Notes: generated by a model not told the origin, from the letters alone. Shown: positions 10,851 to 54,805, numbered from the stretch's first letter. The stretch is 64,000 nt of DNA from Hyphomicrobiales bacterium (GCA_028285595.1 JANQOW010000053.1:2079-66078); one strand, 5' to 3'. Numbers and translations are program-made.

Positions 10851-10856
10851 GCCGCT

Positions 10857-12070: not shown

Positions 12071-12074
<4 letters not shown>
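10857..12074 (+). CDS. yejE: ABC transporter permease YejE
   Basis: 405-aa multi-TM permease with a large periplasmic loop after TM1. It overlaps the yejF start (ATGA). Confidence 0.85.
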
Positions 12075-13699
<1,625 letters not shown>

Positions 13700-15713: not shown

Positions 15714-15789
15714 GCTGAACGCCGTTTGCGGCACGCAACTGCCGCTCTTGCGCCTTTGCAATCGGCTTTCGAGACCCTATTTTTCCCTT

Positions 15790-31609: not shown

Positions 31610-32257
31610 TTAGTGAAGGGTCTCCTGGCTCGCCGATCCTTCAGGATCAGCAACGGGATCGAGGACCGCCACCAGCCGCGTTTCGCCAGTGCCTTCAATC
31701 GGCGGCGAGCGGTGCAGGAGGTTGGCCCCCGACCCTTCGGGCCAGAGGGAACCGCGCAGGAGGATCGGGGATCCCGTGGGCACGGTGTAAATCCGCTGAG
31801 GCGTCCCGGTTTCGGTTGAGAAGCCGTACTGCGTGCCAGTCCCCCGATAGGTGCAGATCAGGCGCGCGGAAACAGCATCTTTATGGAACTTTCGGCAAGC
31901 ATTGCTCGCAACCACGTCCAGGCGCAGCAGCAAATGCTCAACACGCATCAACTCAGCGAAGATATGGGCCAGGGCGGCAATATCATCAATCAACAGAGCC
32001 CGCTCAGCGCAGTCCGGTGTTTTGCATATCTCGCAAATATGAGACGCCGCATCCCGCACGTTTTCAGGCCGCAGGATCAATCGGGCCGACGGCAGATGTT
32101 CCGGCGCCAGCGCATCGATCCAGCTCTGAAAGGTGCGCAACGGTTGGCGAGGCCAGATGGCGGCGGCGCAATCCACACTGTGGATCACCGACAAGCCCTC
32201 AGGCGACTGCGCGACGGCGACCGCAGCTTCGGTGTCCACCTGCCCAACGAGCGTCAT
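31610..32257 (-). CDS. DUF1826 domain-containing protein
   Basis: 215 aa. The segment [24 protein letters not shown] matches my recollection of the DUF1826 signature. ATGA overlap with the stop of the upstream GTPase. Confidence 0.55.
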
Positions 32258-36754: not shown

Positions 36755-36961
36755 TGGGGTTCTCCAGATGCCGCTGTCGTCCATTGGGCTGGAACCGGCG
36801 ACAAAACTTTGTGTGGTTAAGCTCTTGCAGGGCCGTTAGGGTCCTCGGGAAGCGGATAACCTGAACCGACCGGTGACGCAACCTACCCAGGCGATGAGCA
36901 TCCGGCGTGACGCTTGTGCCGGTACATGTAGGCCGTTGCAATCACATTGAGGAACCGAGCG

Positions 36962-37609
36962 ATGAACCACGACCAGCAGCCCCAAGACAAATTCTCAAGA
37001 CTTCACGACGCACTCTGGGAGGCCATCGGCTCCCAGAACGCCAGGTTTCAGGAATTCCCAGTTGAGCAGCCAGAGTTCTCACCGGTTGAAGAAGGCTATT
37101 CCGACGCAAAAGTGGGCGACGATTTTCCCGTCATGAAGCACCTTGACGAGGCGCTTAAGATCGCCGGCGAGCATGGGTTCAAGAAGATCGCAGATGCCTT
37201 TGCGGAGGTCTCAGGCGAATTGCCCTGGTCGCAAAACCCTCGCTACACGGAAGCCAATGGCGGGTTGAACCTCTTGAACGGCTATGCCTATGCGAGCCTT
37301 TCTGGCCCTGAAGGGCCCATCAAGTGCATCGCACCGCGTGGAGGCTTCTACCTGATGGGCCCGGATGTGTTCTATCCAGACCATAACCACGCCCCAAGAG
37401 AGGCATATCTGGTGATGACGCCCGGGGTCGAGTGGCGTTTGGATAAGGGTGATTGGTTCCAGGTCGAGCCGGGTGATGTGATCTACCACTCCCCCTGGCA
37501 AATGCATGCCATGCGTTCAGCGGGCAACCCTGTCTTGGCCTACGCAGTTTGGCTTGAGCCCGGCAATCGCCTTGATATTCAGTGGAGCGAAGACCGCGAA
37601 AGCGCCTAG
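36962..37609 (+). CDS. Cupin protein resembling the DMSP-lyase family (DddL/DddQ-type motif)
   Basis: Cupin metal motifs YPDHNHAPREAYLV and PGDVIYHSPWQMHAMRS in a roughly 215-aa protein. ATG 36962 is preceded by GAGGAA; ORF-track start 36947 is TTG. The family call is tentative. Confidence 0.45.
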   Translation: MNHDQQPQDKFSRLHDALWEAIGSQNARFQEFPVEQPEFSPVEEGYSDAKVGDDFPVMKHLDEALKIAGEHGFKKIADAFAEVSGELPWSQNPRYTEANGGLNLLNGYAYASLSGPEGPIKCIAPRGGFYLMGPDVFYPDHNHAPREAYLVMTPGVEWRLDKGDWFQVEPGDVIYHSPWQMHAMRSAGNPVLAYAVWLEPGNRLDIQWSEDRESA

Positions 37610-38002: not shown

Positions 38003-39406
38003 TCACGTCCTGACGGGTGACATGCCTTTAAGTGCCGCATTGAACTCGGCGAGGGACGACATCTCATCCAACCTAAGAACAGCCTGCAGCGTTTGTTCCA
38101 AGTTTTCGTCAGAGATGTCCAGATTCAATGAGGCCGTCTCTCTGAATTTCTCCTCAAACTGGGCGCGCACAAGATCACGACCAGGAGCGCCTGTCCACAG
38201 GCCAACGCTCGCACTGGCCCGCCGGCCATCCTTCATGACCACCTCAACCGTGTCCGGGTCCTGCGGATCAACATTGATCTCAGGTCGCCGCGGTTGTCTG
38301 GTCGACACATCGACCCTCCCCGCGAGAGCCAAAATATCCTCACGCTGAACCGCTGCGTCACTGAAATCGGCAATCCGGTTGGCACCGGTGACCAGCCCGA
38401 GCGCGACGCAATAGGCCGTGCTGAAGAGGGCCTCCGTGCGGTCTTTGGGCACACCAAAAGGCAAGATGGCGAGGTGGAAGTCCGGCAGCGATGCCGAAGC
38501 GCTCGCAACATCGTCTGCAGACTTGATACCCAACTTGCCATGAAGCTCAATCGAACAATCGACGGATCGGTGCGTATAGCCACAGGATGGATAAACCTTG
38601 GCGCCAAGACCGAACTCTACAATAGCCCAGGGATCGCCCAACTTTGCTAGGGCCCCTTCGAAATTGGCTTTCCCTCGCGGCACCAAAAGGGTTCGAAAAC
38701 TGACATCACCGTCGAGCGCGCCCGTATAAGCAGTAGCACCGGACCGCCCCAGGCTGGCCGCCACGAGCCCGGTCTTGGCCGAGAACCCTGCGTGCAGGGG
38801 TTTGGCCGATGTGCCGAACTGGCTGACATAGCCTGAGCCAAGCGATGTGGTCAGCGAAAGCGCAGCCGCCACTGCACGTGAGTCCAACCCCCAAAGCCTG
38901 CAAACCGCAGCAGTGGCGCCGAAACTGTCCAGCGTGCTCGTCGTGTGCCAGCCAAGATTGTAATGGCCCATATTGACCGCTTCACCGAGACGGAAGATCA
39001 CCTCAAGTCCGACCAGATACGCGTCCAACAGGGCCATACCCGGCACATCCTCCCCAAGCTGATGAGAGGCTGCCAAAACGGCCGGCACCAATACGGCACT
39101 TGCATGATCATTGGCTTGGAGAGTGTAGTCGTCCAGATCATAAGCATGGGCGGCCGCTCCATTCGCCATCGCGGCCCACGGCGGCGGCAGACTGTGTTCC
39201 GTGCCATACACCGGCGCCGTGCCGGCACCCCAATCCTGTGCCGCTGCTATGGCCGCCTGGGGGGCAACCGCATTCGTTCCAAGAAGCATGCATCCGATCG
39301 TATCCAAAAACGCGCACTTTGCGCGTTCGATCGCGCCTGCGGGGTGCTGCACAGAGCTCACACTCGTAACGAACTTTGCAAGCGTGTCGATCGCCACTTC
39401 AGACAT
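38003..39406 (-). CDS. MmgE/PrpD family protein (copy 1)
   Basis: 467 aa; LDTIGCMLLG, AHAYDLDD, GWHTTST and KPLHAG are family hallmarks. Start MSEVAIDTLAKF at 39406. Confidence 0.85.
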   Translation of the reverse strand: MSEVAIDTLAKFVTSVSSVQHPAGAIERAKCAFLDTIGCMLLGTNAVAPQAAIAAAQDWGAGTAPVYGTEHSLPPPWAAMANGAAAHAYDLDDYTLQANDHASAVLVPAVLAASHQLGEDVPGMALLDAYLVGLEVIFRLGEAVNMGHYNLGWHTTSTLDSFGATAAVCRLWGLDSRAVAAALSLTTSLGSGYVSQFGTSAKPLHAGFSAKTGLVAASLGRSGATAYTGALDGDVSFRTLLVPRGKANFEGALAKLGDPWAIVEFGLGAKVYPSCGYTHRSVDCSIELHGKLGIKSADDVASASASLPDFHLAILPFGVPKDRTEALFSTAYCVALGLVTGANRIADFSDAAVQREDILALAGRVDVSTRQPRRPEINVDPQDPDTVEVVMKDGRRASASVGLWTGAPGRDLVRAQFEEKFRETASLNLDISDENLEQTLQAVLRLDEMSSLAEFNAALKGMSPVRT

Positions 39407-39420
39407 AACGGCTCTGCACC

Positions 39421-41460
39421 TCACAAAACACGGCAAAGCCGGTTGGCTTCAAGCAGTGCGGCGTGGATGTTGCGCTGGGCAACAGCATCGCCAATGCGGT
39501 AGAGCTGGTACGACCCTTCCGTATTCTCGCCCTCCGGCTGCGGTTCCAACTGCACGAGCGCTTCAACATCGAGATCACCGAGGTTTCTGGATCCTGCAGA
39601 CAGGTCGTGAAACGGCCCATCGGCGGGAACAGTGCAGGTTTCAACGATAACTTGATCGAACCGCCGTTCCACAATGGTTCGCGAAAAGTCGTTCCACAAG
39701 CTGGCAACCAGCAAATTGCCGTCGCGTCGAACCCCCTTAAGGCGGTGGTTGGGCGTTAAGGTCGCGCCGTTATTGTAGAGGTTCCGCAGGTAGACCGGGA
39801 TGTTCTGGCCACCAATGTTCAGTCCCACTTGCAGATCGGGGGTCACAATCTCAACGTTCGCCCCGTTGGAGGCAAGCCAGTCGGCGGTTGCAACGGCTCC
39901 ATGGTTGCCGGTCTCATCATAGACAAGGACATTTTCACCAGGGCCCGTCTCGCCGGACAAAACCTCCCAGGTTGAGACGGTGAGCTCTCCACCGCCATTC
40001 TCCAATTGAGCATCCGGCACACCTCCGGTGGCAACCACCACCACATCGGTCTGCTCATCCAGCGCTTCAGGCCCTTCCACATAGCGGTTCAGGTGGACCG
40101 CTACGCCCAACACCTCCAGTTCTTGCGCCAACCAGTCGGCAATGCCGATCATATCCTTCCGCCAACCGGCCCGCGCAGCCAGCACAATCTGCCCACCCAG
40201 CCTGGCACCTGCCTCATAGAGGGTGACCTTGTGCCCTCTCAACGCGGCCACCCGGGCAGCTTCCATGCCACCTGGTCCCCCGCCGATAACAACCACCTTC
40301 TTTTGCGCATCGGCCTTCGCAATCTCATGAGGCAACCAACCGTCCCGGCCGGTTGAGACATTGTGGACGCAAAGCGTCTCTCCACCGGCGTAAATACGGT
40401 CGATGCAGTAACCAGCCCCGACGCAGGGCCGAATGCGGGCTTCCTCGCCGCGCATCAATTTGGACACAAGGTGGGGGTCGGCCATATGAGGTCGCGTGAG
40501 GCCCGCCATATCCACGTACCCCTCGGCTATGGCCCAATCTGCCGTGGCCGGATCAGACAGACGTGCGGCTTGGAACACAGGCAAAGCGCTCGCCTCTTTA
40601 ACTCTGCGGGCCAGTTCCACATATGGAGCGGCCTTGTAGGCCATGCCTGGGAACGTCTCGGCAAGCCCGTGGAGCGAACCGCCGTAGGCGCCGTTGATGT
40701 TGAGAAAATCCATTGAGCCGTGTGCACCGATCATCCGAGCAAGTTCGACCCCCTCCTCTGACGGCATGCCGTTCTCATTGGTTTCATCAGCCGCGAAACG
40801 GACGCCGACAATAAAGTCGTCACCAACGCGCGCGCGAACCGCCTCCATGACCTCAATCAGAAACCGCGCCCTGTTCTCCAATTCGCCCCCGTAATCATCC
40901 GTTCGCGCATTTGACAGGGGAGAGAGATATTGCCCCAAGAGATGAGTGGTCGCCAAAATCTCGCATCCATCCAAGCCGCCCTCACGACACCTCAACGCGG
41001 CTTCGGCAAAATCCTTGACGATGCGGGCGATGTCGTGTGTCGACATTTCGCGGGGCACGGAGTGATGAGCCGGGTCGCGGATAACGCTTGGCCCGATGGT
41101 TGGGAGCCAGTCTCCCGCAGCCCACCCGGTGCGCCGGCCCATGTGTGTGATCTGGCACATGAGACCTGCGCCATGTTGGTGGACCCGCTGGGCGAATTCA
41201 CGGAAGACCGGGATAATGCTGTCATCGCCCACATAGATTTGGCCGTAGATGGATCCGGAATCCCTGCTGATGTTGGATGACCCACCAAACATGGTCAGTC
41301 CGATGCCACCCTTTGCCTTCTCCTCATGGTAGGCCTGATAGCGCTCACCAGGTTTGCCGGCCTCCGCATAGCCGGGCGCATGCGCAGTTGAGACCACGCG
41401 GTTCTTAAAGGTGCGCCCGCGGATTGTGATTGGAGACAACAGGTTTTTGTAAGCGCTCAT
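39421..41460 (-). CDS. FMN (OYE-like TIM barrel) plus FAD/NAD(P)-binding two-domain oxidoreductase, N-methylproline demethylase (StcD)-like
   Basis: 679 aa. An N-terminal OYE barrel (FKNRVVSTAH, ERYQAYHEEKAKGGIGLTM, DDYGG) is followed by the Cys cluster RPCVGAGYC...LCVHN. The second domain carries VVVIGGGPGGMEAARVAALRGHKVTLYE. Confidence 0.8.
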   Translation of the reverse strand: MSAYKNLLSPITIRGRTFKNRVVSTAHAPGYAEAGKPGERYQAYHEEKAKGGIGLTMFGGSSNISRDSGSIYGQIYVGDDSIIPVFREFAQRVHQHGAGLMCQITHMGRRTGWAAGDWLPTIGPSVIRDPAHHSVPREMSTHDIARIVKDFAEAALRCREGGLDGCEILATTHLLGQYLSPLSNARTDDYGGELENRARFLIEVMEAVRARVGDDFIVGVRFAADETNENGMPSEEGVELARMIGAHGSMDFLNINGAYGGSLHGLAETFPGMAYKAAPYVELARRVKEASALPVFQAARLSDPATADWAIAEGYVDMAGLTRPHMADPHLVSKLMRGEEARIRPCVGAGYCIDRIYAGGETLCVHNVSTGRDGWLPHEIAKADAQKKVVVIGGGPGGMEAARVAALRGHKVTLYEAGARLGGQIVLAARAGWRKDMIGIADWLAQELEVLGVAVHLNRYVEGPEALDEQTDVVVVATGGVPDAQLENGGGELTVSTWEVLSGETGPGENVLVYDETGNHGAVATADWLASNGANVEIVTPDLQVGLNIGGQNIPVYLRNLYNNGATLTPNHRLKGVRRDGNLLVASLWNDFSRTIVERRFDQVIVETCTVPADGPFHDLSAGSRNLGDLDVEALVQLEPQPEGENTEGSYQLYRIGDAVAQRNIHAALLEANRLCRVL

Positions 41461-42749
41461 TTAGATCTCCCAGCATTGCTCCACACATCGCGGGCGCGAA
41501 AAACAACATCCGCAAAAGGCAAAAACCAGGGACTTCCCCGATGCCACCATCGATTGGGAAACCCTGTCTTAGTGAACGCCGTCTCTCCGTCGCGGTCCCC
41601 GGCCATCAACAGGGCTGCTTTGTGGCCCAGATAGGGTGCCATGGCATTGCCGCTGCCGGAGTAACCCATGGCATGCCAAACGCCATCTTCTTTGCCGACA
41701 TGGGGCAGGAAGTCGAAGGTGAACCCGGTTCTGCCGCGCCAACTATGAGAGAATCCGACGCCTTTCAGTTCGGGAAAGATCTGCGTCATCAACCCTCGCA
41801 GCTCAGATTGTGCAATAGACTCAGGGGCATTGAACAGAGCCGCACGCCCACCGAACACAAGCCGTGTCCCATCTGGTGATGCCCGGTAATAGCAATGTCG
41901 TTCCCGGCTCTCCGCCACCATGCGCCCTCCTGGCAGGAGATCTTTGATCCGGTTCTCGCCGAGAGGCTCGGTGACAACAATGAAGCTCGGGATCGGAACA
42001 ATGCGCCGCTTCAGTGTCGAAAGGTGAGATGGGGTATAGCCGTTTGTGGCCACCAACACCTCGCCGGCGCGGACCCTTCCGCGGGGCGTATCGATGACAA
42101 CTCCCGCATCTGCCTGCTGCACACTTGTGACCGGCGTGTGCCCTTGGACCAGTGCGCCGGCGCGCTGGGCAGCGTTCAGAATACCTTGCACCCATTTGGC
42201 CGGATTCAGTCCACCATGCCTTGGAAAAACGATGCCGCCCGAATAGAGATCGCTGTTGACCTCGTCGCGCTGACGGGATTTCGGCACCATCTCCGCTTCA
42301 AGCGGGATCAACGATTGTAGGCGCTCAAGCCCCCGTGCCGAACTCTCATATTCCGATGGATGCCAGAGGCCGCGAAATCTTCCGGTCTCCGCGAAATCAC
42401 AGTCAATCTCTTCTTCGGCGATGAGGTCCTTGACGAAGTTGGTGGCGTTCAGATGTGCTTCTGTCAGCAGATCAAGGGCCGTCGCCTTACCGAACCGTGC
42501 CTCCATGTCGTCGATAGACATGCGATGCCCCCCACCGATCATCCCGCCATTGCGGGAACTTGCACCGATGCCAGGCGCTTCGGCGTCGAGAACCAGAACC
42601 GCTTTACCTTTCTTTGCCAATGTCCGCGCAGCGGAGAGGCCCGTCAGGCCGGCCCCAACGATCACAAAGTCAATGTCCTGCGGCAACGGGGCCTCTTTGG
42701 GCGACGTTGGCTCCCCTGCATCGTCCCACCAGTAGGGTTCAAATTTCAT
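41457..42749 (-). CDS. FAD-dependent oxidoreductase (DAO family; amine/amino-acid oxidase or dehydrogenase type)
   Basis: 430 aa with the dinucleotide fold DFVIVGAGLTGLSAARTLAKKGKAVLVLD. ATGA overlap with the downstream gene. Start MKFEPYWWDD at 42749 is verified in frame. Confidence 0.85.
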   Translation of the reverse strand: MKFEPYWWDDAGEPTSPKEAPLPQDIDFVIVGAGLTGLSAARTLAKKGKAVLVLDAEAPGIGASSRNGGMIGGGHRMSIDDMEARFGKATALDLLTEAHLNATNFVKDLIAEEEIDCDFAETGRFRGLWHPSEYESSARGLERLQSLIPLEAEMVPKSRQRDEVNSDLYSGGIVFPRHGGLNPAKWVQGILNAAQRAGALVQGHTPVTSVQQADAGVVIDTPRGRVRAGEVLVATNGYTPSHLSTLKRRIVPIPSFIVVTEPLGENRIKDLLPGGRMVAESRERHCYYRASPDGTRLVFGGRAALFNAPESIAQSELRGLMTQIFPELKGVGFSHSWRGRTGFTFDFLPHVGKEDGVWHAMGYSGSGNAMAPYLGHKAALLMAGDRDGETAFTKTGFPNRWWHRGSPWFLPFADVVFRARDVWSNAGRSK

Positions 42750-44262
42750 CGTTGCCGATTTCACGTGAGCGGCGCTCCACAAATGCGTTCAAAGCTTCCG
42801 CGCGATCTGCTTCCAGGTTTGGTGCTTCGTAGGCCGCCAACATTTCCTTCCACTTGGCGTTGGCGCGGATAGCGGTATCGGGCGAACCATCAGCCTCCCA
42901 GAACTCATAGGGTCTCCAGTCTGACAGAATGGGAGCGTGAAAGGCCGTCTGATACCGGGCCATTGTGTGCGAAGACCCCAGGAAATGCCCGCCGGGGCCA
43001 ACTTCTTCAATGGCGGCAATCGCTTCCTCTGCATCGCTGAAGTCAATACGGCCACTGAGAGCCCCCATCATCCCGATCATTTCCGCATCAATGATCGTCT
43101 TTTCAAAACCTGTGGTAAGGCCGGCCTCCATCCAACCGTGCGCATGATAGACGCAATGCGCCCCGCACAGCACACCAGCCCACAAGGAGAACATTGTTTC
43201 ATATGCGCCCTGGGCGTCCGGGGCATTGGAGCTGGAGCCCAGCATGAGGCGTTGGGGAAGCTTATAGCGGCGGGCCATCTGACCGTTCGACAATGTACCG
43301 GTGACGGTTTCCGGCACACCCATGGCCGGGGCGCCGGACTTCATGTCGATCGGGGTGGTCAACACACCATAAAAGCAAGGAGCACCGGCGCGCACCATCT
43401 GAAGAAAGGCAATGACACCAATGGCCTCGGCATTACATTGGATGAGACTTCCAGATAGCGTTATCGGCGACATCGCTCCGGCAAAGGCGACGGGCGAAAT
43501 GACGTTCGCCTGGCCGTTCGCAGCCATTTCCATCGCACCTTCCAGCAGCGGTTCATCTACAACCAAGGGGGAGTTCACGGAGATACTGGCATGCAGTCGG
43601 GGCTCGGCTGCGAGTTCATCACGGGTTATGCCGTGGGCAAGTGCGGTCATCTCCAGACTATCGCGCACACGCGTTTCGCCGATCGCATAGACACGGGTCA
43701 CCTTGTCGGACAGCGTCTGCCACGAGCGCATGCTTGTCAGATGACGGGTGTTGACGGGAGTGTCGATCGGCTCGACCGGATGGCCGGAATGGAAGGCACA
43801 CGTTGGGATCATTTGGTTGAGTTTGACCAGATCCTCGAAGTCCTTTTGCGTTCCGGGGCGGCGGCCGCGATCCATGTCCAGCACGTTCGGCGCAGAAGAC
43901 GCTGAACCGAAGTGAATATCGCCGCACCCAAAGTGGAGATCGTGAGCACGATTGCGCGCCCGCATGGTGAATTCTGACGGCGCCAAAGCCAGGAAGTGTT
44001 CCACCACTTCTGGCGGAAAACGGGCGATGCCCGTCTCCCGATCAACCGCGCAGCCATTGGCCTCCAGGATAGGCCAGCTCCTCTCCGCCATAAACTTCAG
44101 CCCAATGCGCTCAAGAACCTGAAGCGAGAGTGCGTGAACTCTTTCTTCTTCTTCTGCGGTAAGCAAGTCGATCGGCGCATAGGGCCGCTGAATGGGCTTG
44201 AACGTCGGCGCCTCCGCAGGGGCTACCTCTTTGGTTCTGCGCCCTTGCCGTCGGGCAGACAT
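42739..44262 (-). CDS. MttB (trimethylamine methyltransferase) superfamily protein, non-pyrrolysine type (copy 1)
   Basis: About 507-aa uninterrupted ORF with an Arg/Lys-rich N-terminus, then LTAEEEERVHALSLQVLERIGLKF, and the C-terminus GPGGHFLGSSHTMARY. ATG 44262 is preceded by GGAGG. Confidence 0.85.
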   Translation of the reverse strand: MSARRQGRRTKEVAPAEAPTFKPIQRPYAPIDLLTAEEEERVHALSLQVLERIGLKFMAERSWPILEANGCAVDRETGIARFPPEVVEHFLALAPSEFTMRARNRAHDLHFGCGDIHFGSASSAPNVLDMDRGRRPGTQKDFEDLVKLNQMIPTCAFHSGHPVEPIDTPVNTRHLTSMRSWQTLSDKVTRVYAIGETRVRDSLEMTALAHGITRDELAAEPRLHASISVNSPLVVDEPLLEGAMEMAANGQANVISPVAFAGAMSPITLSGSLIQCNAEAIGVIAFLQMVRAGAPCFYGVLTTPIDMKSGAPAMGVPETVTGTLSNGQMARRYKLPQRLMLGSSSNAPDAQGAYETMFSLWAGVLCGAHCVYHAHGWMEAGLTTGFEKTIIDAEMIGMMGALSGRIDFSDAEEAIAAIEEVGPGGHFLGSSHTMARYQTAFHAPILSDWRPYEFWEADGSPDTAIRANAKWKEMLAAYEAPNLEADRAEALNAFVERRSREIGNDEI

Positions 44263-44325
44263 GAGAGACCTCCAAGCATGTAATCGCTGAACACTAGGCC
44301 TTTCAGTCCATGCTATCACCTGATA

Positions 44326-45279
44326 TTGTATAATTTCAGATATAACAGTTTCGCATACCTTGCTGTGAGATTTGCCGACTTACAAACGTTTATCGATGTC
44401 ATAGAGCATGGCGGCATGACCCAGGCGGCCGCCATTAACGGCGTCTCACAACCAGGGATCAGCAGGTCAATACGAGATCTTGAGACGCGTATGCGCGCGA
44501 CGTTGTTGCGCCGCACCGGGCGCGGCGTGGAGTTGACCCCTGCTGGTATGGAGTTTCTCGCCTTTGCAAAATCCAGCCTAAGCGCGCTCGAAGACGCCAA
44601 ATCAAGGATAATGGAGGTTTCCGGCAACATTCCCGAGAGGTTGCACATTGCCATTCCGGACCGGCTTGGGTCTGTGGTGTACCCGGTCCTCTATCGCCAA
44701 TTCATGCTGGAGCTTCCCGAAGTTGCGGTTGCCGCCACAGAGACCCTAACGGCGGATATGATTGACGGCATTAACGCAGGGCGCGTGGACTTGTCAGTCT
44801 CCTATCTGCCGACGATCCCTGGGGCCTACGGTGGCGAACCCGCCTTTCGCGAGAGCCTCTATTTGGTGGAGAGAAAGACCAAAACGGTCAGCAAGGACGT
44901 CACCGTCTCCCTTGCCGATGTCGCTAAGCAACCTTTTCTTCTGAACCACCAGGGCAGCGCCTACCATCGCCTCATAGATGCCGCGTTCTCAGCAGCCGGG
45001 CACAAGCTGATCGTCGCCAGAGAGTTTGAAACAGCAGAGAGCTTGCTTGCATTTGCATGCGAAGGTGAAGGCGTGACGATCCTTCCTTACAGCAACTTTC
45101 GCACGGAGGCGCAGCGCGGCGACGTTATAGGGCGGCTCATAACTGACCCGGGGATTGAGCGAAATGTCTACGTTCACGCCGGGCGACACTTGGACAACCG
45201 CACCGCAAACCTCGCCCGCGGCATCATTCTGCGCTGTCTCAATGAGATCGCCGAAAGCGTCCGCTGGTCGCCCATGTAA
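44326..45279 (+). CDS. LysR family transcriptional regulator (divergent from the MttB operon)
   Basis: HTH LQTFIDVIEHGGMTQAAAINGVSQPGISRSIRDLE plus a LysR substrate-binding domain. The start is uncertain: 44326 is TTG, and an in-frame GTG at 44365 gives a more typical N-terminus. Confidence 0.85.
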   Translation: MYNFRYNSFAYLAVRFADLQTFIDVIEHGGMTQAAAINGVSQPGISRSIRDLETRMRATLLRRTGRGVELTPAGMEFLAFAKSSLSALEDAKSRIMEVSGNIPERLHIAIPDRLGSVVYPVLYRQFMLELPEVAVAATETLTADMIDGINAGRVDLSVSYLPTIPGAYGGEPAFRESLYLVERKTKTVSKDVTVSLADVAKQPFLLNHQGSAYHRLIDAAFSAAGHKLIVAREFETAESLLAFACEGEGVTILPYSNFRTEAQRGDVIGRLITDPGIERNVYVHAGRHLDNRTANLARGIILRCLNEIAESVRWSPM

Positions 45280-45376
45280 ACCGCGCTGACGGAGCTGAAT
45301 GGACAGTGATGTCTTGACTTGGCGCCTCCGTCAACGGACATAGCTTTTCGACAGTCCTTTCAGAAAGACACAAAAC

Positions 45377-46384
45377 ATGGCTCGCAACACGCAGGTTGTC
45401 CTTAGAAACAGGCCGGGCACCCGGCTCGCCGAGACCGATGTTGAATTGGTTGAGCGCGATATACCGGAACTTGGAGAAAATGAGTTTCTTGTTGAGAGCA
45501 AATATGTGTCGATCGACTTTGCCATGCGGGGCTGGATGGCAGCGGGCCGGTCCTATGTCCCCACCCTTGATCTCGGCGCGGTGGTGCGCGGCTGTTCGGC
45601 AGGAACCGTTATCTCATCGCATAACGAGAGCTTTCCTGAGGGCGCTCAGGTTTGCGGCATGCTCGGCGTTCAAAGCCATGCCATCAGTGACGGAACAGGT
45701 GTCTACACAGTTAACCCGGAGCAAGCTTCGTTAAAACGTTGGGCGGGCGGCCTAGGGCCGACCACTGCCCTAACCGCCTATCTCGGGCTTCTCCATGCGG
45801 GCCGACCAGAACAGGACGACACCGTATTCGTCTCCGGGGCCACCGGGGCCGTTGGCTCATTGGTCGGGCAAATGGCAAAGCTCAAGAAATGCCGTGCAGT
45901 GGGCACGGCCGGCAACGCGGCCAAATGTGATTTTGTTGTGAGCGAGTACGGATTCGATGCGTGCGTCGATTACACAGCAGACACTCTTGCAGATCAGATT
46001 GCGGAGGCGTGCCCGGACCGCATTGACGTGCTTTTTGAAAATGTGGGCGGTGCCCTGTTTGATACCAGCCTGTTGCAGATGAACACGTTCGGGAGAGTTG
46101 TCCTGTGCGGCTTCACATCGGACCGCACCGCGCCGGAGCCTTATGGAGTGAAGAACCTCCGCGCGGTGCTGATGGAGCGGCTCACCATGTTGGGGTTCAT
46201 CTTGTTTGAGTATGCCGACGGGTATCAAACCGCGGCGGATGATATCGGGGCCTGGTTTGCTGACGGAAAACTGACATTGCAAGGGGATGAAGAAGTGTAT
46301 CCGGGGGGCTTGCCGGCGTTCGCCTCCGCACTGAACCGGGTGCTGGATGGACAAAACACCGGGAAGGTCATTTTGGAGATTTAG
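45377..46384 (+). CDS. NADP-dependent oxidoreductase, medium-chain dehydrogenase/reductase family (YncB/CurA/alkenal reductase-like)
   Basis: 335 aa with the cofactor motif VSGATGAVGSLVGQMAK and no catalytic Zn ligands. Confidence 0.8.
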   Translation: MARNTQVVLRNRPGTRLAETDVELVERDIPELGENEFLVESKYVSIDFAMRGWMAAGRSYVPTLDLGAVVRGCSAGTVISSHNESFPEGAQVCGMLGVQSHAISDGTGVYTVNPEQASLKRWAGGLGPTTALTAYLGLLHAGRPEQDDTVFVSGATGAVGSLVGQMAKLKKCRAVGTAGNAAKCDFVVSEYGFDACVDYTADTLADQIAEACPDRIDVLFENVGGALFDTSLLQMNTFGRVVLCGFTSDRTAPEPYGVKNLRAVLMERLTMLGFILFEYADGYQTAADDIGAWFADGKLTLQGDEEVYPGGLPAFASALNRVLDGQNTGKVILEI

Positions 46385-47298
46385 GACTCTCGCAGCCACC
46401 TGGCCCGGTCGCTGTTCTCAACAAAAGCCTGTTTGATCAGGGCGATGGTGTGACGCACCAATGGGTTTGCCGCAGTGGAGCTGCCAGCAACCGATATGCC
46501 GCGGGTAATGGTAGGCTCAATGATCTTGCGAGCGACGAGTTCGCCATTTTCGACCTCTTCCCAAAGATTGCTGTAAGGCAGAATGGTGAGCCCTTCCCCT
46601 TGAGCGGCAAAAGACACATGGGCATGGATCGTTTCCAGCTCGCGCGCCACAATTGGCTCGTGGCCGGCCTTGCGCATGCTGTCTTCGATCAGCCCTCTAT
46701 AGTGTGCGGGCCTTGACTGCAGCAAAAGAGGATAGGAGGCGACCTCTGCCATCGTCATTGCGGTCGCGTCTGTGCCCAAAAGGGCGCTTGAGCCGAAAGC
46801 GTAGAGTTCTTCATGGCCCAGTTCCTCTGAGGCTAGGTTGGGCGGCTCAGGCGGCGTGTAAAACACACCCACATCCATCTCACGGGCCGCAAGCATGTCT
46901 TGGGTCTGGATGTTCAGGTTTTCAAAGACATGGATCGACGCGTTGGGAAACGCGTTTGAAAAACTCGTGACCAGCGGAGCCATGATCAGACGTCCGACCC
47001 GCATCGGTATGGACACATTTAATGCACCGACCTCGGTGCCACGGAGTTGTTCGGCGCACTCCAGCAACTGATCGTACTCCAAGATCACTGAAGATGCCTG
47101 CTGCAGAAACACCTCTCCGGCCTTGGAAGGCTTTACGCCCCGCCCTGTTCGCTCAAACAGCTTGACCCCATGCGTCTCCTCAAGGTCCCGCACGATCCGG
47201 CTGAGAGATGCTTGGGCAACACCCAAACGAGACGCGGCCAGCGAAATGGATCCCGCCTGCTCAACGGCCAACAACATCTGCAGGTGCCTGATCTTCAT
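46381..47298 (-). CDS. LysR family transcriptional regulator (divergent from the second MttB gene)
   Basis: HTH MKIRHLQMLLAVEQAGSISLAASRLGVAQASLSRIVRDLE. The C-terminal region (TILPYSN...RW) is paralogous to the regulator at 44326-45279. Confidence 0.9.
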   Translation of the reverse strand: MKIRHLQMLLAVEQAGSISLAASRLGVAQASLSRIVRDLEETHGVKLFERTGRGVKPSKAGEVFLQQASSVILEYDQLLECAEQLRGTEVGALNVSIPMRVGRLIMAPLVTSFSNAFPNASIHVFENLNIQTQDMLAAREMDVGVFYTPPEPPNLASEELGHEELYAFGSSALLGTDATAMTMAEVASYPLLLQSRPAHYRGLIEDSMRKAGHEPIVARELETIHAHVSFAAQGEGLTILPYSNLWEEVENGELVARKIIEPTITRGISVAGSSTAANPLVRHTIALIKQAFVENSDRARWLRES

Positions 47299-47439
47299 GT
47301 TGCCTCATCATGCTCAACCGGCCTGATATTACAATAATGTTATAGCTGATGCTCTGTTTTTGTGGCTTGTTCAAACCCTGCCGGCGCTATTCGATGGTCG
47401 TGGGAATTTCGGCCTACATGCCCCTTTAAGAGGAGTGGA

Positions 47440-48981
47440 ATGGGACCTGCGATCCGATCTAAACGCACCCGGCGCCGGCGCGACGCTCTTGCAGACCGTG
47501 AGCACAGCGCTCCGGTGGAAATGCCGTCAAGGCACGGTCTTCCGCCGGCTGAAGTTCTGACCGCAGAGCAAATCGAAGATGTTCATGCTTACTCAACGCG
47601 CCTTCTTGAGGAGGTGGGCATTGAGTTTATGCTCCCAGCCGCCTGGGATATCCTGGAAGCGAACGGTGCAAAGGTCGATCGCGACAGCGGCATGGTCAAA
47701 ATGGATCGTGGGCTGGTTGAGCACTGGGTCTCTAAGGCTCCGAGCACGTTTGACTTAAAGGCGCGCGAGAGCTCTCGCGATATCAGCTTTGGCGGAAAAG
47801 AGATTGCCTATGGTTCGGTCGCCAGCGCGCCGAATGCCTTGGATGCGGAACGCAGACGCACCGTAGGCAGTCAGTCCAGTTTCCGTGACTTGCTCAAGTT
47901 AAGCCACACCCTCAGCACCTGTTCCTTCTTCTCAGGTTATCCCGTCGAGCCGATAGACCTTCCGGTAAACACGCGCCATCTGGATTGCTACGCTGATCTC
48001 CTCACGCTGACGGACAAGCCGTTCAGGATTTATGCAATCGGTGAGACCCGGGTGACAGACGCGCTCGATATGGTTTGCCTTGGCCACGGGATCAACCGCG
48101 ACGAACTAAGAGAAGCACCGCGCCTCATCACAAACCTCAACGTAAACTCGCCTCTACGCGTTGATGCACCTTTGCTCGAGGGCGCAATGGAGATGGCCAG
48201 AAACGGTCAGATCGTCGTCGTCACGCCAGTGGCGTTTTCCGGAGCCATGACACCGATCACTCTGTCCGGAACCCTGATTCAGTTTAATGCAGAGTGCCTT
48301 GCCACGATCGCGTTCCTCCAGATGGTCCGTGCCGGTGCGCCGGTTATGTATGGCACGGTGTTCGCGAACGTGGACATGAAGTCCGGCGCACCGATCCTCG
48401 GGTCCGCTGAAATGAGCACAGGCATGATCGCCACCGGCCAACTCGCGCGGCGCTATGGCATTCCCATGCGGGGCTTTCTTGGATCATCCTCCAAGGCGCC
48501 TGATGCTCAAGCTGCCTATGAGACAATGATCTGCTTGTGGGCCAACGTCTTGGCTGGCGTGCACTGCGTGTTCCACGCTCACGGCCTTTTGGATACCGGC
48601 TTGATTGCCTCGTACGAAAAAGCCGTCCTGGATTCTGACCTGATTGGAATGATGCAGGTTGTCTCTCCAACCGTTGACTTTTCAGATCTCGACGAAGCGT
48701 TCGATGCCATTAAGACCGTCGGTCCCGGCGGACACTTCCTGGGAGCAGACCACACCATGGCGCGGTACAAGACGGCGTTCCACACTCCGCTCCTTTCCGA
48801 TTGGCGGGCATACGAGTTTTGGGAAAGCGACGGCGCAAAAGACACCGCCGTTCGAGCGACCGAAAAGTGGAAGGAGTTGCTTGATAGCTATGTGCCGCCG
48901 GATCTTCCCGCCGGCCGAGCTGAGGCCCTTGAGGAATTCGTCATCCGGCGCAAGCAGGAAATCGGAGACATGGACATATAA
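47440..48981 (+). CDS. MttB superfamily protein, non-pyrrolysine type (copy 2)
   Basis: Collinear with copy 1, roughly 60% identity by eye, sharing blocks such as YAIGETRV, PLLEGAMEMA, FLQMVRAGAP, DMKSGAP and GPGGHFLG. ATG 47440 is preceded by AAGAGGAG; ORF-track start 47362 is rejected. Confidence 0.85.
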   Translation: MGPAIRSKRTRRRRDALADREHSAPVEMPSRHGLPPAEVLTAEQIEDVHAYSTRLLEEVGIEFMLPAAWDILEANGAKVDRDSGMVKMDRGLVEHWVSKAPSTFDLKARESSRDISFGGKEIAYGSVASAPNALDAERRRTVGSQSSFRDLLKLSHTLSTCSFFSGYPVEPIDLPVNTRHLDCYADLLTLTDKPFRIYAIGETRVTDALDMVCLGHGINRDELREAPRLITNLNVNSPLRVDAPLLEGAMEMARNGQIVVVTPVAFSGAMTPITLSGTLIQFNAECLATIAFLQMVRAGAPVMYGTVFANVDMKSGAPILGSAEMSTGMIATGQLARRYGIPMRGFLGSSSKAPDAQAAYETMICLWANVLAGVHCVFHAHGLLDTGLIASYEKAVLDSDLIGMMQVVSPTVDFSDLDEAFDAIKTVGPGGHFLGADHTMARYKTAFHTPLLSDWRAYEFWESDGAKDTAVRATEKWKELLDSYVPPDLPAGRAEALEEFVIRRKQEIGDMDI

Positions 48982-48982
48982 G

Positions 48983-50386
48983 ATGGCATTGGCCTTGGAC
49001 GCAGAACCGATTGGCCAGACGGCAATCCGCACATTGGCGGCGTTTATCGCCAATGCACCGCGCAGGTACGGACCGGTGGCGCGTGAGCGGTCGCGGTTTG
49101 CCATTCTGGATACGGTCGGATGTATGATTTTCGGTCAATCGAGCCCGGAAGCTCAAGCTGCGTTCGCATCGGTTTCCGGTTGGGGGACAGGTCCTGCAAT
49201 GGTGGTTGGCAAAGACGTTGGATTGCCGCCACCTTGGGCTGCTTTCGTGAACGCCACCGCGGCACATGCGCTTGACTATGATGATTGGGACGATCCATCC
49301 CTGGTCCACACCAGCGCGGTGTTGCTACCTGCCATACTCGCCGTTGCAACGGAGCGGGAAGCAGATGGCGCAGACGTTTTAGACGCACATATTGTTGGCG
49401 TTGAGACGCTGCTGCGGATCGGAGAGGCCGTTAACCCAAGCCACTACTGGAACGGATGGCACGCAACATCAACGATCGGTGCCATTGGCGCAGCGGCTGC
49501 CGTGTCACGGATGTTGGCGCTTGATGAAGATCAGACAGCAAATGCCCTGTCCATCGCAACCAGCATGGCCGGTGGCTATGTCAGCCAATTTGGCACCATG
49601 ACAAAGCCCATGCATGCAGGTTTTGCCGCCAAAGCAGGAGTTTTCGCCGCTGCTTTGGCCAAAGCAGGCACCAGTGCCCAAGAAGCCGCGCTCGATGGCC
49701 CGGTGAGCTTCAGAAGCACAACCGCCAACGTGGATCAGGAGGCATTTTTCACAGCTTTCGGAAAGCTGGGAACACCGTGGGCGATCGAAGAGTATGGGAT
49801 GCACATCAAGCTTTACCCCTCTTGCGGCGGCACGCACCGGGTTATCGAAGCCGCGCTCATGCTAAGAAAAGACAACCAAATCGATCCCAGCCGGATTCGG
49901 GATATCGAAGTGAATGTGCCTGAGTTCCTCATCGAGCTTCTCCCCTACAAAGTCCCGAACACCCGCCCGGAAGCACTCTTCAGTTTGCCTTATTGCGCAG
50001 CGGCAGCATTGATGTGGGGAAAAGTGGGGATCGACGAGTTCAGCGATGACGCAATCAACGATGGCACCGTCCGCGCTATATCAGCCCGGGTTCGCCTAAC
50101 AACACGCGCGTTCAACTATCAGACCCACCTCTTTGTGAAGGGCAATTTCGACGTCGTCACTGTTACCACCGAAGACGGACGCACGTTCAGCGCCTCGATC
50201 GACATTCCGTACGGCGCACCGCCGAGATTTGCAGATCAAGAGACCGTTGAGCGGAAATTCATGGATTGCGCGCGCCGGGGTCTGCCGGAAGATCAAGCCA
50301 CACAGATCATGGAGTTGCTGCGCGCACCTGCAGCCCAGTGGGCTCCCTCAGATCTCTGTAACCGCATGACACCTCTTCAAAGCTAA
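48983..50386 (+). CDS. MmgE/PrpD family protein (copy 2)
   Basis: 467 aa. The ATG lies 1 nt after the mttB-2 stop (TAA G ATG), in frame with ORF-track 48659. It shares LDTVGCM, AHALDYDD, GWHATST and KPMHAG with copy 1. Confidence 0.85.
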   Translation: MALALDAEPIGQTAIRTLAAFIANAPRRYGPVARERSRFAILDTVGCMIFGQSSPEAQAAFASVSGWGTGPAMVVGKDVGLPPPWAAFVNATAAHALDYDDWDDPSLVHTSAVLLPAILAVATEREADGADVLDAHIVGVETLLRIGEAVNPSHYWNGWHATSTIGAIGAAAAVSRMLALDEDQTANALSIATSMAGGYVSQFGTMTKPMHAGFAAKAGVFAAALAKAGTSAQEAALDGPVSFRSTTANVDQEAFFTAFGKLGTPWAIEEYGMHIKLYPSCGGTHRVIEAALMLRKDNQIDPSRIRDIEVNVPEFLIELLPYKVPNTRPEALFSLPYCAAAALMWGKVGIDEFSDDAINDGTVRAISARVRLTTRAFNYQTHLFVKGNFDVVTVTTEDGRTFSASIDIPYGAPPRFADQETVERKFMDCARRGLPEDQATQIMELLRAPAAQWAPSDLCNRMTPLQS

Positions 50387-50420: not shown

Positions 50421-52070
50421 ATGACAAAGAAACCTGAGAAAACCGCACAAGTAGGCGACAAAATTGTCTTCGGCTCCATGCCAGATGCCGACAAAGAGTT
50501 TGTGGTCGATGCCCTGAAAAAAGGAGCCACGCGCCGCCAAGTGATGGGTTGGTTGATGGCCATGGGCGCAACCATTGGTGCAGCCGGCTCCATCGTAACA
50601 AGCGCGACCGAAGCCATCGCCGCCACGCCCAAGAAAGGCGGCAAGATTCGTATGGCGTGGGACCAACATGGACCGGGCGACACCCTGGATCCGGCCGGTT
50701 ACCTCAACACATTGGACTATTGCCGCGGACGCATGATGTACAACAGTCTCGTGCGCTTCAATGATGACCTGACGGTGCGCGGCGAGTTGGCCACTTCGTT
50801 TGAAGCCAGTCCCGATGCCAAAACCTGGACGTTCAAGATCCGCAAGGATGTGGAATGGCATGATGGCAGCAAGCTAACGGCAGACGATGTTGTCTACTCC
50901 ATGATGCGCCATGTGGGAGAAGATTCAAAATCGGCCGTCAAGGTTCTCTCCTCTCCAGTGAAAGAGTGGAAGAAAATCGACGAAGAAACCGTACAGGCAA
51001 CGTGCCACCAGGGCTTTGCAGAATTGCCGGTTGTGCTGGCCACATTCCACTTCAAGGTCATCAAAGACGGCACGACCGATTTCACAAATCCGACCGGCAC
51101 CGGCCCGTTCAAACTCAAGGAGTTCAAGCCTGGCATTCGGGCGGTGCATGTGCGCAATGACAATTACTGGAACGACGAGGCCGGACCATATGTGGACGAG
51201 ATCGAGTCATTCGGCGTTACAGATTCGGTTGCGCGTGTGAACGCACTCCTGTCTGGGGATCTGAACATGATGGGCAATCTCGATCCCAAGGCTATTGCCC
51301 AGGTGGAGCAGACCGATGGCGTAGAAGTCTTCGAGGTGCCCTCGGGTCGGTATCCCTCGATCACTTGCATGGTGGATCGCGAGCCCGGCAACAATCCAGA
51401 CTTCGTCCTTGGTTTGAAACACCTCCAGCGGCGGGACCGTGTTCTCAAAGTCGTCCAAAAGGGCAAGGGCAGCATCGGCAACGACCAGCCCATCGGCGAG
51501 CCCTATGGTGCAGGCTATTGCAAGGACCAGGTGATCAGGCCGTACGATCCTGAGAAGGCCAAGTTTCACCTCAAAAAGTCCGGCATTACGAGCGCTGAGG
51601 TGAATGTCGCAGAGATCTATCCGGGTATGACCGATATCTGCCTCATGCTGCAGCGCGAGTGCGCCAAGGTTGGGTTCGAACTCAAGATCAAGAAAGTCCC
51701 GAATGACGGGTACTGGGGTGCGGTCTGGATGAAGACGCCCATGAACGTGGTGGCTTGGAACATGCGTCCAAGTGCAACCATCATGATGGGTTTGGCGTAC
51801 AAATCCGACGCCAAATGGAACGAAACCGGATGGAAGAACGAGCGGTTCGACCAACTCCACACCATGGCGGTGGCAGAACTTGATGAGAGCAAGAAGTACG
51901 AGATGCTGTGCGAGATGCAGAAACTGATCTCCGATTATTCGGGCTCTCTTGTCCCCACAACCGCCAGCTACGTGGACGGCATCTCATCCAAAGTTAAGGG
52001 CATGCCCCGCGTGTCTCTTGCCGCCCTGGGTGGAATGGAGTGGCCGGAGTTTGTCTGGCTTGACTCATAA
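50421..52070 (+). CDS. ABC transporter substrate-binding protein, family 5, with a Tat-type signal
   Basis: 549 aa. Twin-arginine motif GATRRQVMGWLMAMGATIGAAG...AIA after a long n-region. SD AAAGGGAG. No permease or ATPase gene is adjacent. Confidence 0.85.
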   Translation: MTKKPEKTAQVGDKIVFGSMPDADKEFVVDALKKGATRRQVMGWLMAMGATIGAAGSIVTSATEAIAATPKKGGKIRMAWDQHGPGDTLDPAGYLNTLDYCRGRMMYNSLVRFNDDLTVRGELATSFEASPDAKTWTFKIRKDVEWHDGSKLTADDVVYSMMRHVGEDSKSAVKVLSSPVKEWKKIDEETVQATCHQGFAELPVVLATFHFKVIKDGTTDFTNPTGTGPFKLKEFKPGIRAVHVRNDNYWNDEAGPYVDEIESFGVTDSVARVNALLSGDLNMMGNLDPKAIAQVEQTDGVEVFEVPSGRYPSITCMVDREPGNNPDFVLGLKHLQRRDRVLKVVQKGKGSIGNDQPIGEPYGAGYCKDQVIRPYDPEKAKFHLKKSGITSAEVNVAEIYPGMTDICLMLQRECAKVGFELKIKKVPNDGYWGAVWMKTPMNVVAWNMRPSATIMMGLAYKSDAKWNETGWKNERFDQLHTMAVAELDESKKYEMLCEMQKLISDYSGSLVPTTASYVDGISSKVKGMPRVSLAALGGMEWPEFVWLDS

Positions 52071-54767: not shown

Positions 54768-54805
54768 CAACGCTTCTCCATCCAGGGAATTACAGTAGGA
54801 AACCG

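Follow-up and report, generated by a model that had tools for sequence, protein, structure and literature searches.

Two diverged copies of a LysR-MttB-PrpD gene module in a Hyphomicrobiales bacterium and their possible role in the catabolism of an acidic N-methylated amine

A stretch of 64,000 nucleotides from a Hyphomicrobiales bacterium (GCA_028285595.1, JANQOW010000053.1:2079-66078), hereafter called the window, carries two copies of a gene module in which a LysR-type regulator is divergent from a gene for a non-pyrrolysine methyltransferase of the MttB superfamily, and the methyltransferase is accompanied by an enzyme of the MmgE/PrpD family. We found that this MttB-PrpD pairing recurs well beyond this genome and that the partner genes have diverged together. 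Our preferred reading, to which we give about an even chance, is that the two copies (type 1 and type 2) are anciently diverged paralogues of one LysR-controlled catabolic module for an acidic N-methylated (quaternary) amine other than glycine betaine, in a pathway whose PrpD-like enzyme would most likely be an epimerase. The gene families are already known, as are LysR-controlled betaine catabolic operons in general; the combination is not described in the searchable literature, where no paper on the MttB-PrpD pairing was found, as the first-pass annotation of this DNA had supposed for both families.

Organization of the two modules

Pfam searches assigned all six genes as they had first been named, namely two MttB, two PrpD-like and two LysR genes, so the module is indeed present twice and the MttB-PrpD pairing is retained in both copies. 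On the minus strand, module 1 forms a compact operon of five genes in the order MttB-1, DAO-family oxidoreductase, OYE/Fe-S flavoprotein, PrpD-1 and RidA. Module 2 consists of LysR-2 and, divergent from it, MttB-2, PrpD-2 and a family-5 solute-binding protein, with a class III CoA-transferase gene convergent and a gene for an MDR ene-reductase beside LysR-2. The latter (45377-46384) lies between both LysR genes and belongs to module 2. The features are as follows (window coordinates, strand, description, evidence).

36947-37609, plus: DddQ-like cupin (Pfam DMSP_lyase); PF16867, 131 bits; best PDB matches are DddQ, 51 bits
37606-37995, minus: RidA-family protein (Ribonuc_L-PSP), last gene of the module-1 operon; Pfam; ATG at 37995
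38003-39406, minus: PrpD-1, MmgE/PrpD family, iminodisuccinate (IDS)-epimerase/IRG1 branch, clade A; MmgE_PrpD_N 171 bits and MmgE_PrpD_C 87 bits
39421-41460, minus: StcD/HpbA-like flavoprotein with FMN (OYE), Fe-S and NAD(P)-binding parts, 679 residues, probable tertiary-amine N-demethylase; Oxidored_FMN (PF00724) and Pyr_redox_2 (PF07992)
41457-42749, minus: DAO-family FAD amine/amino-acid oxidoreductase; PF01266, 199 bits
42739-44262, minus: MttB-1, non-pyrrolysine MttB-superfamily methyltransferase, clade A; PF06253, 552 bits
44336-44347, minus: putative shared operator core TGTTATATCTGA in the LysR-1/MttB-1 intergenic region; one of two matches in the window
44365-45279, plus: LysR-1, divergent regulator; HTH_1 and LysR_substrate; start revised
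45377-46384, plus: MDR NADPH ene-reductase (CurA/LTB4-dehydrogenase type), module-2 accessory; ADH_N_2 and ADH_zinc_N; CurA 289 bits, cut-off 440
46381-47298, minus: LysR-2, divergent regulator; HTH_1 and LysR_substrate
47338-47349, plus: putative shared operator core TGTTATAGCTGA in the LysR-2/MttB-2 intergenic region; identical sequence in locus L001
47440-48981, plus: MttB-2, non-pyrrolysine MttB-superfamily methyltransferase, clade B; PF06253, 556 bits
48983-50386, plus: PrpD-2, MmgE/PrpD family, clade B; both domains, 191 and 113 bits; starts 1 nucleotide (nt) past the MttB-2 stop codon
50421-52070, plus: family-5 (Dpp/Opp/opine-type) solute-binding protein; PF00496; no adjoining permease genes
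52172-53371, minus: class III CoA-transferase, convergent with module 2, possible accessory; PF02515, 342 bits

The MttB-1 open reading frame (ORF) is unbroken and has a GGAGG site 7 nt ahead of its ATG at 44262. The in-frame ATG of the DAO gene at 42749 overlaps the end of MttB-1 by 11 nt, and the RidA ATG at 37995, preceded by GAGGGG, lies 7 nt past the PrpD-1 stop codon. The cupin gene on the plus strand (36947-37609) is convergent with the 3' end of this operon. In module 2, the MttB-2 start at 47440 is preceded by a AAGAGGAG ribosome-binding site, and the TAA-G-ATG junction of MttB-2 and PrpD-2, with the 1-nt spacing reported at first pass, was located at 48979-48985. Scans for promoters and terminators gave nothing above the shuffled background, and no NCBIfam equivalog assignment was obtained for any module protein.

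The BLASTP comparisons revealed 58% identity over 490 residues between the MttB paralogues, 43% over 429 residues between the PrpD paralogues (E = 4e-104) and 31% over 301 residues between the LysR paralogues (E = 4e-46), with the last alignment taking in the TILPYSN block and the C-terminal RW. These values agree with the earlier estimates by eye of about 60% for MttB, 40-45% for PrpD and shared C-terminal blocks for LysR. The kinship of LysR-1 and LysR-2 is specific, as they match each other with 146 bits and the third LysR protein of the window scores at most 44 bits against either.

Distribution of the MttB-PrpD pairing

Species-representative genomes were scanned with both MttB sequences, which yielded 14 loci (loci carry our L and P numbers). 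All 14 are from alphaproteobacterial metagenome-assembled genomes (MAGs) of the Rhodospirillales, Hyphomicrobiales, Rhodobacteraceae and unclassified Pseudomonadota. A PrpD homologue was found at most 5 kb from MttB in 9 of the 11 loci with enough flank; L009 and L012 had none. Of ten PrpD-2 homologues examined for their context, seven (100, 56, 53, 51, 46, 46 and 43% identity) are downstream of an MttB gene, and one with 65% identity is downstream of a flavoprotein gene, where the contig ends. Three homologues with 42-46% identity do not follow MttB, and one of these is preceded by a gamma-butyrobetaine-hydroxylase-like gene. A metagenome scan with the PrpD alignment yielded 79 loci. All ten matches that scored at least about 470 bits against PrpD-1 or PrpD-2 and had a usable upstream flank showed MttB or the flavoprotein upstream; weaker homologues mostly lacked MttB and often adjoined CoA-transferases. 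Altogether, the linkage comprises about 20 non-redundant loci in MAGs of the Rhodospirillales, Hyphomicrobiales and Rhodobacteraceae, and the pairing extends beyond this genome. L004 differs in arrangement, with PrpD 1.8 kb away from MttB and on the other strand. Stand-alone relatives are MttB in L009 and L012 and PrpD in L106. The neighbours of MttB in L009 and L012 were uninformative, as were the Pfam-annotated neighbours of the MttB-unlinked PrpD relatives in L029, L037 and L041, where only MFS, TPP enzyme and tRNA synthetase genes were present.

A megablast search of plasmids with the region gave no match. In a plasmid protein search with PrpD-1, the best matches were Bradyrhizobium proteins with only 35% identity; plasmids of cultured strains thus give no evidence of the module. 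The module occurs almost only in uncultured genomes.

In L021 (6621-10392), a gene of the ComA (phosphosulfolactate synthase) family precedes a very distant MttB gene (118 bits to MttB-1), whose end overlaps a clade-B-like PrpD gene by 4 nt; the PrpD partnership may extend to other MttB subfamilies, judging from this locus. L023 has a second, very divergent PrpD paralogue in tandem after its type-1 module (10524-11957, plus strand). In P0069 (JGI 3300050821), a PrpD homologue 42% identical to PrpD-2 directly follows a gene resembling TauD/gamma-butyrobetaine hydroxylase, in a cluster that also holds CoA-transferase, HpcH lyase, enoyl-CoA hydratase and thiolase genes. This cluster, which has no MttB, is another link of the PrpD family to quaternary-amine chemistry.

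Co-divergence and history of the modules

In a neighbour-joining tree, the MttB-linked PrpD proteins fell into two clades, A with PrpD-1 and B with PrpD-2, and the MttB tree revealed the same two clades with the same members. The two trees are thus congruent, and the A/B split is concordant in four families, namely MttB, PrpD, flavoprotein and LysR. The correlations of pairwise distances were as follows.

MttB versus PrpD, 18 non-redundant loci: r = 0.94, reached by 0 of 5000 Mantel permutations
MttB versus PrpD, within the clades: r = 0.89 and 0.93
MttB versus flavoprotein, 14 loci: r = 0.95
PrpD versus flavoprotein, 14 loci: r = 0.93
MttB or PrpD versus LysR, 16 loci: r = 0.68-0.70

Identities to the orthologues and to the paralogue in the window were as follows.

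MttB-1: orthologues in other orders 74-88%; paralogue 58%
PrpD-1: orthologues 57-79%, all downstream of MttB and flavoprotein; paralogue 43%
MttB-2: orthologues 58-92%; paralogue 58%
PrpD-2: orthologues 51-84%; paralogue 43%

We found the two modules adjacent only in this lineage (the window, L001 and L015), whereas other genomes have one module type only within the ±10 kb fetched. Accordingly, the duplication is ancient, the whole unit diverged together, and the copies may have come to lie side by side only secondarily. The first-pass view, that regulator and enzyme genes were duplicated together long ago and are not a recent repeat, is supported. The opposite orientation of the two copies is present as first described, but it does not show an inverted duplication in place. 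A recent event of that kind was rejected on the low identities (31-58%) and on the existence, in other orders, of orthologues closer to each copy than its paralogue.

Most loci of both clades have LysR divergent from MttB, followed by the flavoprotein (679 residues) and PrpD. The flavoprotein gene is missing in window copy 2 and its near relatives and in L016, L017, L021 and L022. From this distribution, the ancestral module had LysR divergent from MttB, an StcD-like FMN/Fe-S amine demethylase and PrpD, and copy 2 has lost the flavoprotein; it may rely on the flavoprotein of copy 1. Since the flavoprotein co-diverged with MttB and PrpD, the unit comprises at least LysR, MttB, flavoprotein and PrpD. 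Because most loci, including type-2 orthologues, hold the flavoprotein gene between MttB and PrpD, the abutment of MttB-2 and PrpD-2 is derived; therefore, the coupling in copy 2, which the first-pass annotation had taken to argue that the two proteins work together, is no argument for a two-protein complex.

The MttB enzymes

MttB-1 and MttB-2 match the TIM-barrel domain PF06253 over profile positions 2-500 of 500 (552 and 556 bits, respectively), and neither ORF contains an in-frame UAG (pyrrolysine) codon. Against the TIGR02369 trimeth_pyl equivalog they score 292-300 bits, which is under the cut-off of 525. The best PDB matches were 4YYC from Sinorhizobium meliloti and MtgB (2QNE/9YCE), with 292-312 bits. 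The active site of MtgB binds the quaternary nitrogen through Y97 and F356 and the carboxylate through R312 and H348 (PMC13080624). Pocket residues were mapped from the HMMER alignment by motif. The equivalents of R312 and H348, which are R344 and H379 of MttB-2, were invariant in 22 of 22 PrpD-linked MttBs, whereas the cation-pi residues Y97 and F356 were replaced in all 22 sequences (A, S or G at position 128; G or A at position 387). The predicted substrate-pocket residues are near-identical in clades A and B. This pocket predicts an acidic quaternary amine and a cavity larger than or different from that for glycine betaine. The lack of conservation of the MtgB cation-pi residues led us to reject glycine betaine itself as a substrate.

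Glycine betaine demethylation in Ruegeria pomeroyi requires a single cobalamin protein (MtgC) and a single pterin methyltransferase (MtgD), both encoded apart; genomes there hold as many as seven pfam06253 paralogues, and one MtgC/MtgD core was proposed to serve them (PMC12478193). By analogy, MttB-1 and MttB-2 are best read as two further substrate modules of the Ruegeria kind. We also observed a DUF1638 gene (15703-16419, plus strand) that closes an operon of Dpp-like ABC transporter, 2-hydroxyacid dehydrogenase and asparaginase II genes. The DUF1638 protein of R. pomeroyi has a predicted part in recharging cobalamin for the MtgBCD methyltransferase, and no other gene of the window shows a possible connection with the cobalamin part of MttB chemistry.

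The PrpD-like enzymes

The best PDB matches of PrpD-2 were the Bacillus subtilis 'IRG1' protein 7BRA (207 bits; function unproven) and IDS epimerase (198 bits), followed by cis-aconitate decarboxylase. IDS epimerase is the nearest characterised relative and has the PSC motif in common with PrpD, as a distant homologue and not an orthologue. A 2025 study (PMC12290011) found a C4-dicarboxylate in every known substrate of the MmgE/PrpD family, and the residues for binding and acid/base chemistry throughout the family. We mapped H88, E91, H102, Y148, H152, K202 and K266 of Pa MSI (methylsuccinate isomerase) to H95, D98, H109, Y155, H160, K208 and K276 of PrpD-2. These residues are conserved in 77-97 of 97 homologues, with position 98 being D in 77 and E in 20. 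Because every dicarboxylate-binding residue is kept, the PrpD-like enzyme most likely epimerises or eliminates on a succinate-like dicarboxylate skeleton.

A role as 2-methylcitrate dehydratase proper was rejected: PrpD-1 scores 27-37 bits against the corresponding equivalogs (cut-offs 575-950) and both PrpDs score 27-47 bits (cut-offs 458-950), the match to 1SZQ has only E = 1.6e-9, and prpBC genes are lacking, with neither a methylcitrate synthase nor a lyase among the window ORFs scanned.

The flavoprotein and the accessory genes

The flavoprotein shares 46-50% identity with plasmid-borne rhizobial proteins, among them one annotated as N-methylproline demethylase (ATN37458.1; 556 bits, 46% identity; an annotation itself based on similarity). 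Its scores against FadH (2,4-dienoyl-CoA reductase) and TMADH (trimethylamine dehydrogenase) were 239 and 175 bits. A GGGPGG motif is located at residue 393. The iron-sulfur (Fe-S) region (residues 346-364) contains three cysteines only, as RPCVGAGYC-x11-C; the Fe-S motif of FadH and TMADH is C-x2-C-x2-C-x11-12-C. The RPCVGAxYC motif is kept in 14 flavoprotein orthologues and in the Rhizobium protein annotated as N-methylproline demethylase. L022 has an MttB-PrpD pair without a flavoprotein gene; about 1.3 kb downstream of this pair, the other strand encodes a DMGDH-like demethylase (DAO-FAO_M-GCV_T), which fits an N-demethylase role for the flavoprotein. A FadH-type enoyl reductase is less likely in view of the identity, the common motif and this DMGDH-like gene.

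The DAO gene is also present in L007, L008, L011, L023, L036 and L044, and in L007 a RidA match also follows PrpD. The nearest NCBIfam models of the DAO protein are L-pipecolate oxidase and aminophosphonate oxidoreductase, with scores far under their cut-offs. The DddQ-like cupin family occurs inside or beside MttB-PrpD clusters in L017, L018-L020, L027 and L028, in three arrangements; its real substrate may be the compound degraded by the module and not dimethylsulfoniopropionate (DMSP). The MDR ene-reductase adjoins LysR-2/MttB-2 in L001-L004, L026, L016, L103 and L104, and a family-5 solute-binding protein gene is beside type-2 modules in L001-L004, L018, L027, L103 and L104. The class III CoA-transferase family recurs in L018-L020, L027, L001 and L023; in L023, an 822-residue double-domain member with DddD-like architecture (486-2954, minus strand) flanks the type-1 module. 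For the window protein (52172-53371), the nearest models are succinate-glutarate and mesaconate CoA-transferases. In L104, an enolase-superfamily (MR_MLE) gene, of the family of the betaine epimerase HpbD, is located at 1428-2540 (plus strand), next to the genes for the solute-binding protein and the MDR reductase in a type-2 module.

The rest of the window holds ordinary chromosomal genes (dnaX, argH, lysA, DUF4175 and ABC transporters). A complete Dpp-type transporter lies 37 kb upstream (6037-13699, plus strand), with two tandem binding proteins that are 43% identical to each other; it could partner the orphan binding protein at 50421-52070. Near the modules, with no link seen, are genes for a CobW/COG0523-type GTPase (32254-33471, minus strand) and a DehI-like haloacid dehalogenase homologue (56718-57599, plus strand), and a 360-residue ORF (54764-55846, plus strand) with no Pfam match.

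Regulators and a shared putative operator

Both regulators fit the LysR type, with an N-terminal HTH_1 and a LysR_substrate domain, a position divergent from the target operon and an AT-rich putative operator. The 12-mer TGTTATANCTGA was found just twice in the 64 kb, compared with 0.2 occurrences expected, and each copy is 75-100 nt upstream of an MttB start and oriented towards that start. The copy at module 1, TGTTATATCTGA, sits in a block conserved among type-1 orthologues, GTTATNTCTGAAATTATA..CAGGTGA. Since TGTTATANCTGA is present only at the two MttB promoters, which are homologous, the duplicated unit included its putative operator. The LysR-1 start first assigned to TTG 44326 falls inside this conserved operator region. 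LysR-1 orthologues begin at MRFADL and the LysR-2 alignment starts at the same point, and we therefore revised the start, which is most likely GTG 44365.

Proposed pathway and its alternatives

The following proposal builds on the observed gene identities, conservation, co-divergence and residue conservation, and every chemical step in it is inferred. The divergent LysR protein would bind the shared operator and switch the operon on. MttB would then remove the first methyl group from the quaternary nitrogen and hand it over to a shared MtgC/MtgD-type core encoded elsewhere, where a cobalamin protein would receive it before its transfer to tetrahydrofolate, as family membership and the aerobic Ruegeria system suggest. 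By homology and context, the StcD/HpbA-like flavoprotein would oxidatively remove the next methyl group. Where present, the DAO-family enzyme and RidA would deal with the secondary amine that is left, by oxidation to an imine and hydrolysis of that imine. The PrpD-like enzyme, the invariant partner of MttB, would bind the succinate-like C4-dicarboxylate part of the substrate and form an enolate; it most likely inverts a stereocentre and so lets both isomers enter the pathway, comparable to HpbD for proline betaines, IDS epimerase and methylsuccinate isomerase. A shared pathway fits the pairing. Accordingly, of the two options offered at first pass for MttB and PrpD, consecutive steps or a complex, the first is consistent with our results, and a physical complex is improbable.

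Several observations weigh against this proposal. No corrinoid (B12-binding) or pterin (Pterin_bind) methyltransferase gene is present among the window ORFs scanned or in the Pfam-annotated fetched neighbourhoods, and for this reason the cobalamin dependence rests on analogy. A PrpD group unlinked to MttB falls between clades A and B in the neighbour-joining tree. The sole clear exception to linkage among close PrpD homologues is L106 (9001-10392), where a PrpD-1-like, clade-A-like protein (552 bits) in a 3.1-Mb genome is encoded after secA, with no MttB within 9 kb. The distance correlations must partly reflect shared species history, whereas the concordant A/B split in four families does not. 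No abundant natural betaine built on a succinate skeleton is known to us. The accessory genes (class III CoA-transferase, AMP-ligase, MDR ene-reductase and DddQ-like cupin) fit an unsaturated-acid intermediate better than a simple epimerase. If the MR_MLE gene of L104 encodes the epimerase there, the PrpD-like enzyme needs another role.

The main alternative for the PrpD step is elimination of the amine. The pathway would be the same, with PrpD acting as a C-N lyase, i.e. a deaminating counterpart of 2-methylcitrate dehydratase: after MttB yields the tertiary amine, PrpD would abstract the proton beside the carboxylate and expel dimethylamine (or trimethylamine), the unsaturated dicarboxylate formed, e.g. 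fumarate or mesaconate, would be CoA-activated and reduced, and the flavoprotein and DAO protein would act on the released methylamines or on a side branch. The MmgE/PrpD family includes a beta-eliminating dehydratase with a common enolate mechanism; the recurrent class III CoA-transferase, the AMP-binding ligase and the CurA-type ene-reductase fit an unsaturated-acid product; the recurrent DddQ-like cupin comes from a family of beta-eliminating lyases; and minimal clusters of MttB and PrpD only exist (L016, L021 and L022). However, the closest characterised relatives of PrpD are an epimerase and an isomerase, with the dehydratase scoring just 27-47 bits, the flavoprotein is much nearer to N-methyl amino-acid demethylases than to trimethylamine dehydrogenase, and the accessory genes differ between loci. 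We regard the lyase as unlikely. The cupins, the class III CoA-transferases, the DddD-like double CoA-transferase beside the L023 cluster and the marine setting might also suggest that the module acts on a DMSP-related sulfonium compound rather than an ammonium compound, but quaternary amines are the substrates of every characterised non-pyrrolysine MttB member, the partners inherited along with MttB are amine oxidoreductases (the StcD-like flavoprotein, the DAO protein and the DMGDH-like protein in L022), and the cupin is only distantly DddQ-like at 51 bits, which makes this substrate class very improbable.

A physical complex of MttB and PrpD, in which PrpD would be a structural or substrate-delivering subunit that possibly replaces the missing corrinoid partner, appears a shade less probable again. 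Although the 1-nt spacing in window copy 2, the 4-nt overlap in L021, the invariant co-occurrence and co-divergence of the two proteins and the lack of a corrinoid gene nearby are in its favour, the flavoprotein gene separates MttB and PrpD in most loci, PrpD is on the other strand in L004, and no MttB-PrpD fusion was found among the 120 best PrpD homologues. Moreover, the catalytic residues of PrpD are fully conserved, which argues for an enzyme, its fold has no known cobalamin site, and unlinked MtgC/MtgD cores are documented in aerobic marine bacteria. Finally, some loci adjoin transposase or integrase genes, as might be expected if the adjacency were fortuitous or a mobile block of unrelated genes with no shared pathway. 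This explanation was already disfavoured and we give it next to no weight: the pairing persists in three or more alphaproteobacterial orders amid varying neighbour genes, the operon is compact, four gene families co-diverge, and both copies have a common operator.

Returning to the catabolic module with a candidate epimerase, we suggest, tentatively and with the odds somewhat against it, that the modules might be a catabolic route for a class of marine or soil betaine so far unrecognised as a bacterial substrate, namely an acidic quaternary amine with a succinate-like (aspartate-type) skeleton. PrpD would then have an activity new to its family, as a betaine/N-methyl-amino-acid epimerase or an amine-eliminating lyase, coupled to cobalamin-dependent demethylation in aerobes. 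Aerobic marine and soil Alphaproteobacteria have many MttB/MtgB-like paralogues, whose substrates the 2025 Ruegeria study leaves open. One well-defined MttB subfamily is now tied to fixed partner enzymes and to a dedicated LysR regulator and putative operator, and the analysis yields a substrate prediction: acidic, probably a dicarboxylate, N-methylated and not glycine betaine. A new activity is also likely for the MmgE/PrpD family, for which only four reactions have been characterised so far, and, if the model is true, cobalamin would have a wider role in the turnover of methylated nitrogen compounds.

Comparison with known systems

We compared the modules with MtgBCD (Desulfitobacterium hafniense MtgB/C/A; Ruegeria pomeroyi MtgB/MtgC/MtgD, PMC12478193). 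The window MttBs are likewise full-length pfam06253 proteins without pyrrolysine that keep the carboxylate ligands, and, as in Ruegeria, no corrinoid or pterin genes are next to the pfam06253 gene. In contrast to MtgB, both cation-pi residues are replaced, so glycine betaine is an unlikely substrate, and the window MttBs are in an operon with a PrpD-like enzyme and an StcD-like flavoprotein.

The known MmgE/PrpD members (IDS epimerase 2HP0, (S)-(R)-methylsuccinate isomerase (PMC12290011), cis-aconitate decarboxylase and 2-methylcitrate dehydratase) have both Pfam domains and all C4-dicarboxylate-binding and acid/base residues in common with the window PrpDs. The window PrpDs differ in that they reach no equivalog model, and their surroundings contain neither prpBC nor, except for the CoA-transferase, itaconate genes. 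To our knowledge, none of the known family members is encoded together with a methyltransferase, and none uses an N-methylated amine.

The proline betaine systems come closest to the modules in overall plan, and the hydroxyproline betaine branch adds a DAO-type dehydrogenase. The proline betaine route of Paracoccus comprises a racemase, a first demethylase, a flavin N-methyl demethylase and a LysR regulator (PMC3950512). The hpb (Paracoccus denitrificans, PMC3950512) and stc (Sinorhizobium meliloti) systems thus resemble the modules in combining LysR, a stereo-inverting enzyme, a first demethylase and a flavin N-methyl demethylase, and the window flavoprotein is 46% identical to a protein annotated as N-methylproline demethylase. 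They differ from the modules in the first demethylase, which is MttB-type in the window and a Rieske oxygenase in hpb/stc, and in the candidate stereo-inverting enzyme, which has the MmgE/PrpD fold in the window while HpbD is of the enolase superfamily. In addition, the window PrpD residues point to a dicarboxylate substrate, and proline betaine is not a dicarboxylate.

The MtpB, MtcB, MtyB and MthB systems of Eubacterium limosum are anaerobic, clustered with corrinoid, MtqA and RamQ genes and devoid of PrpD-like or flavoprotein partners, unlike the modules described here. They are nevertheless similar in that several substrate-specific MttB paralogues are present per genome and feed one corrinoid protein.

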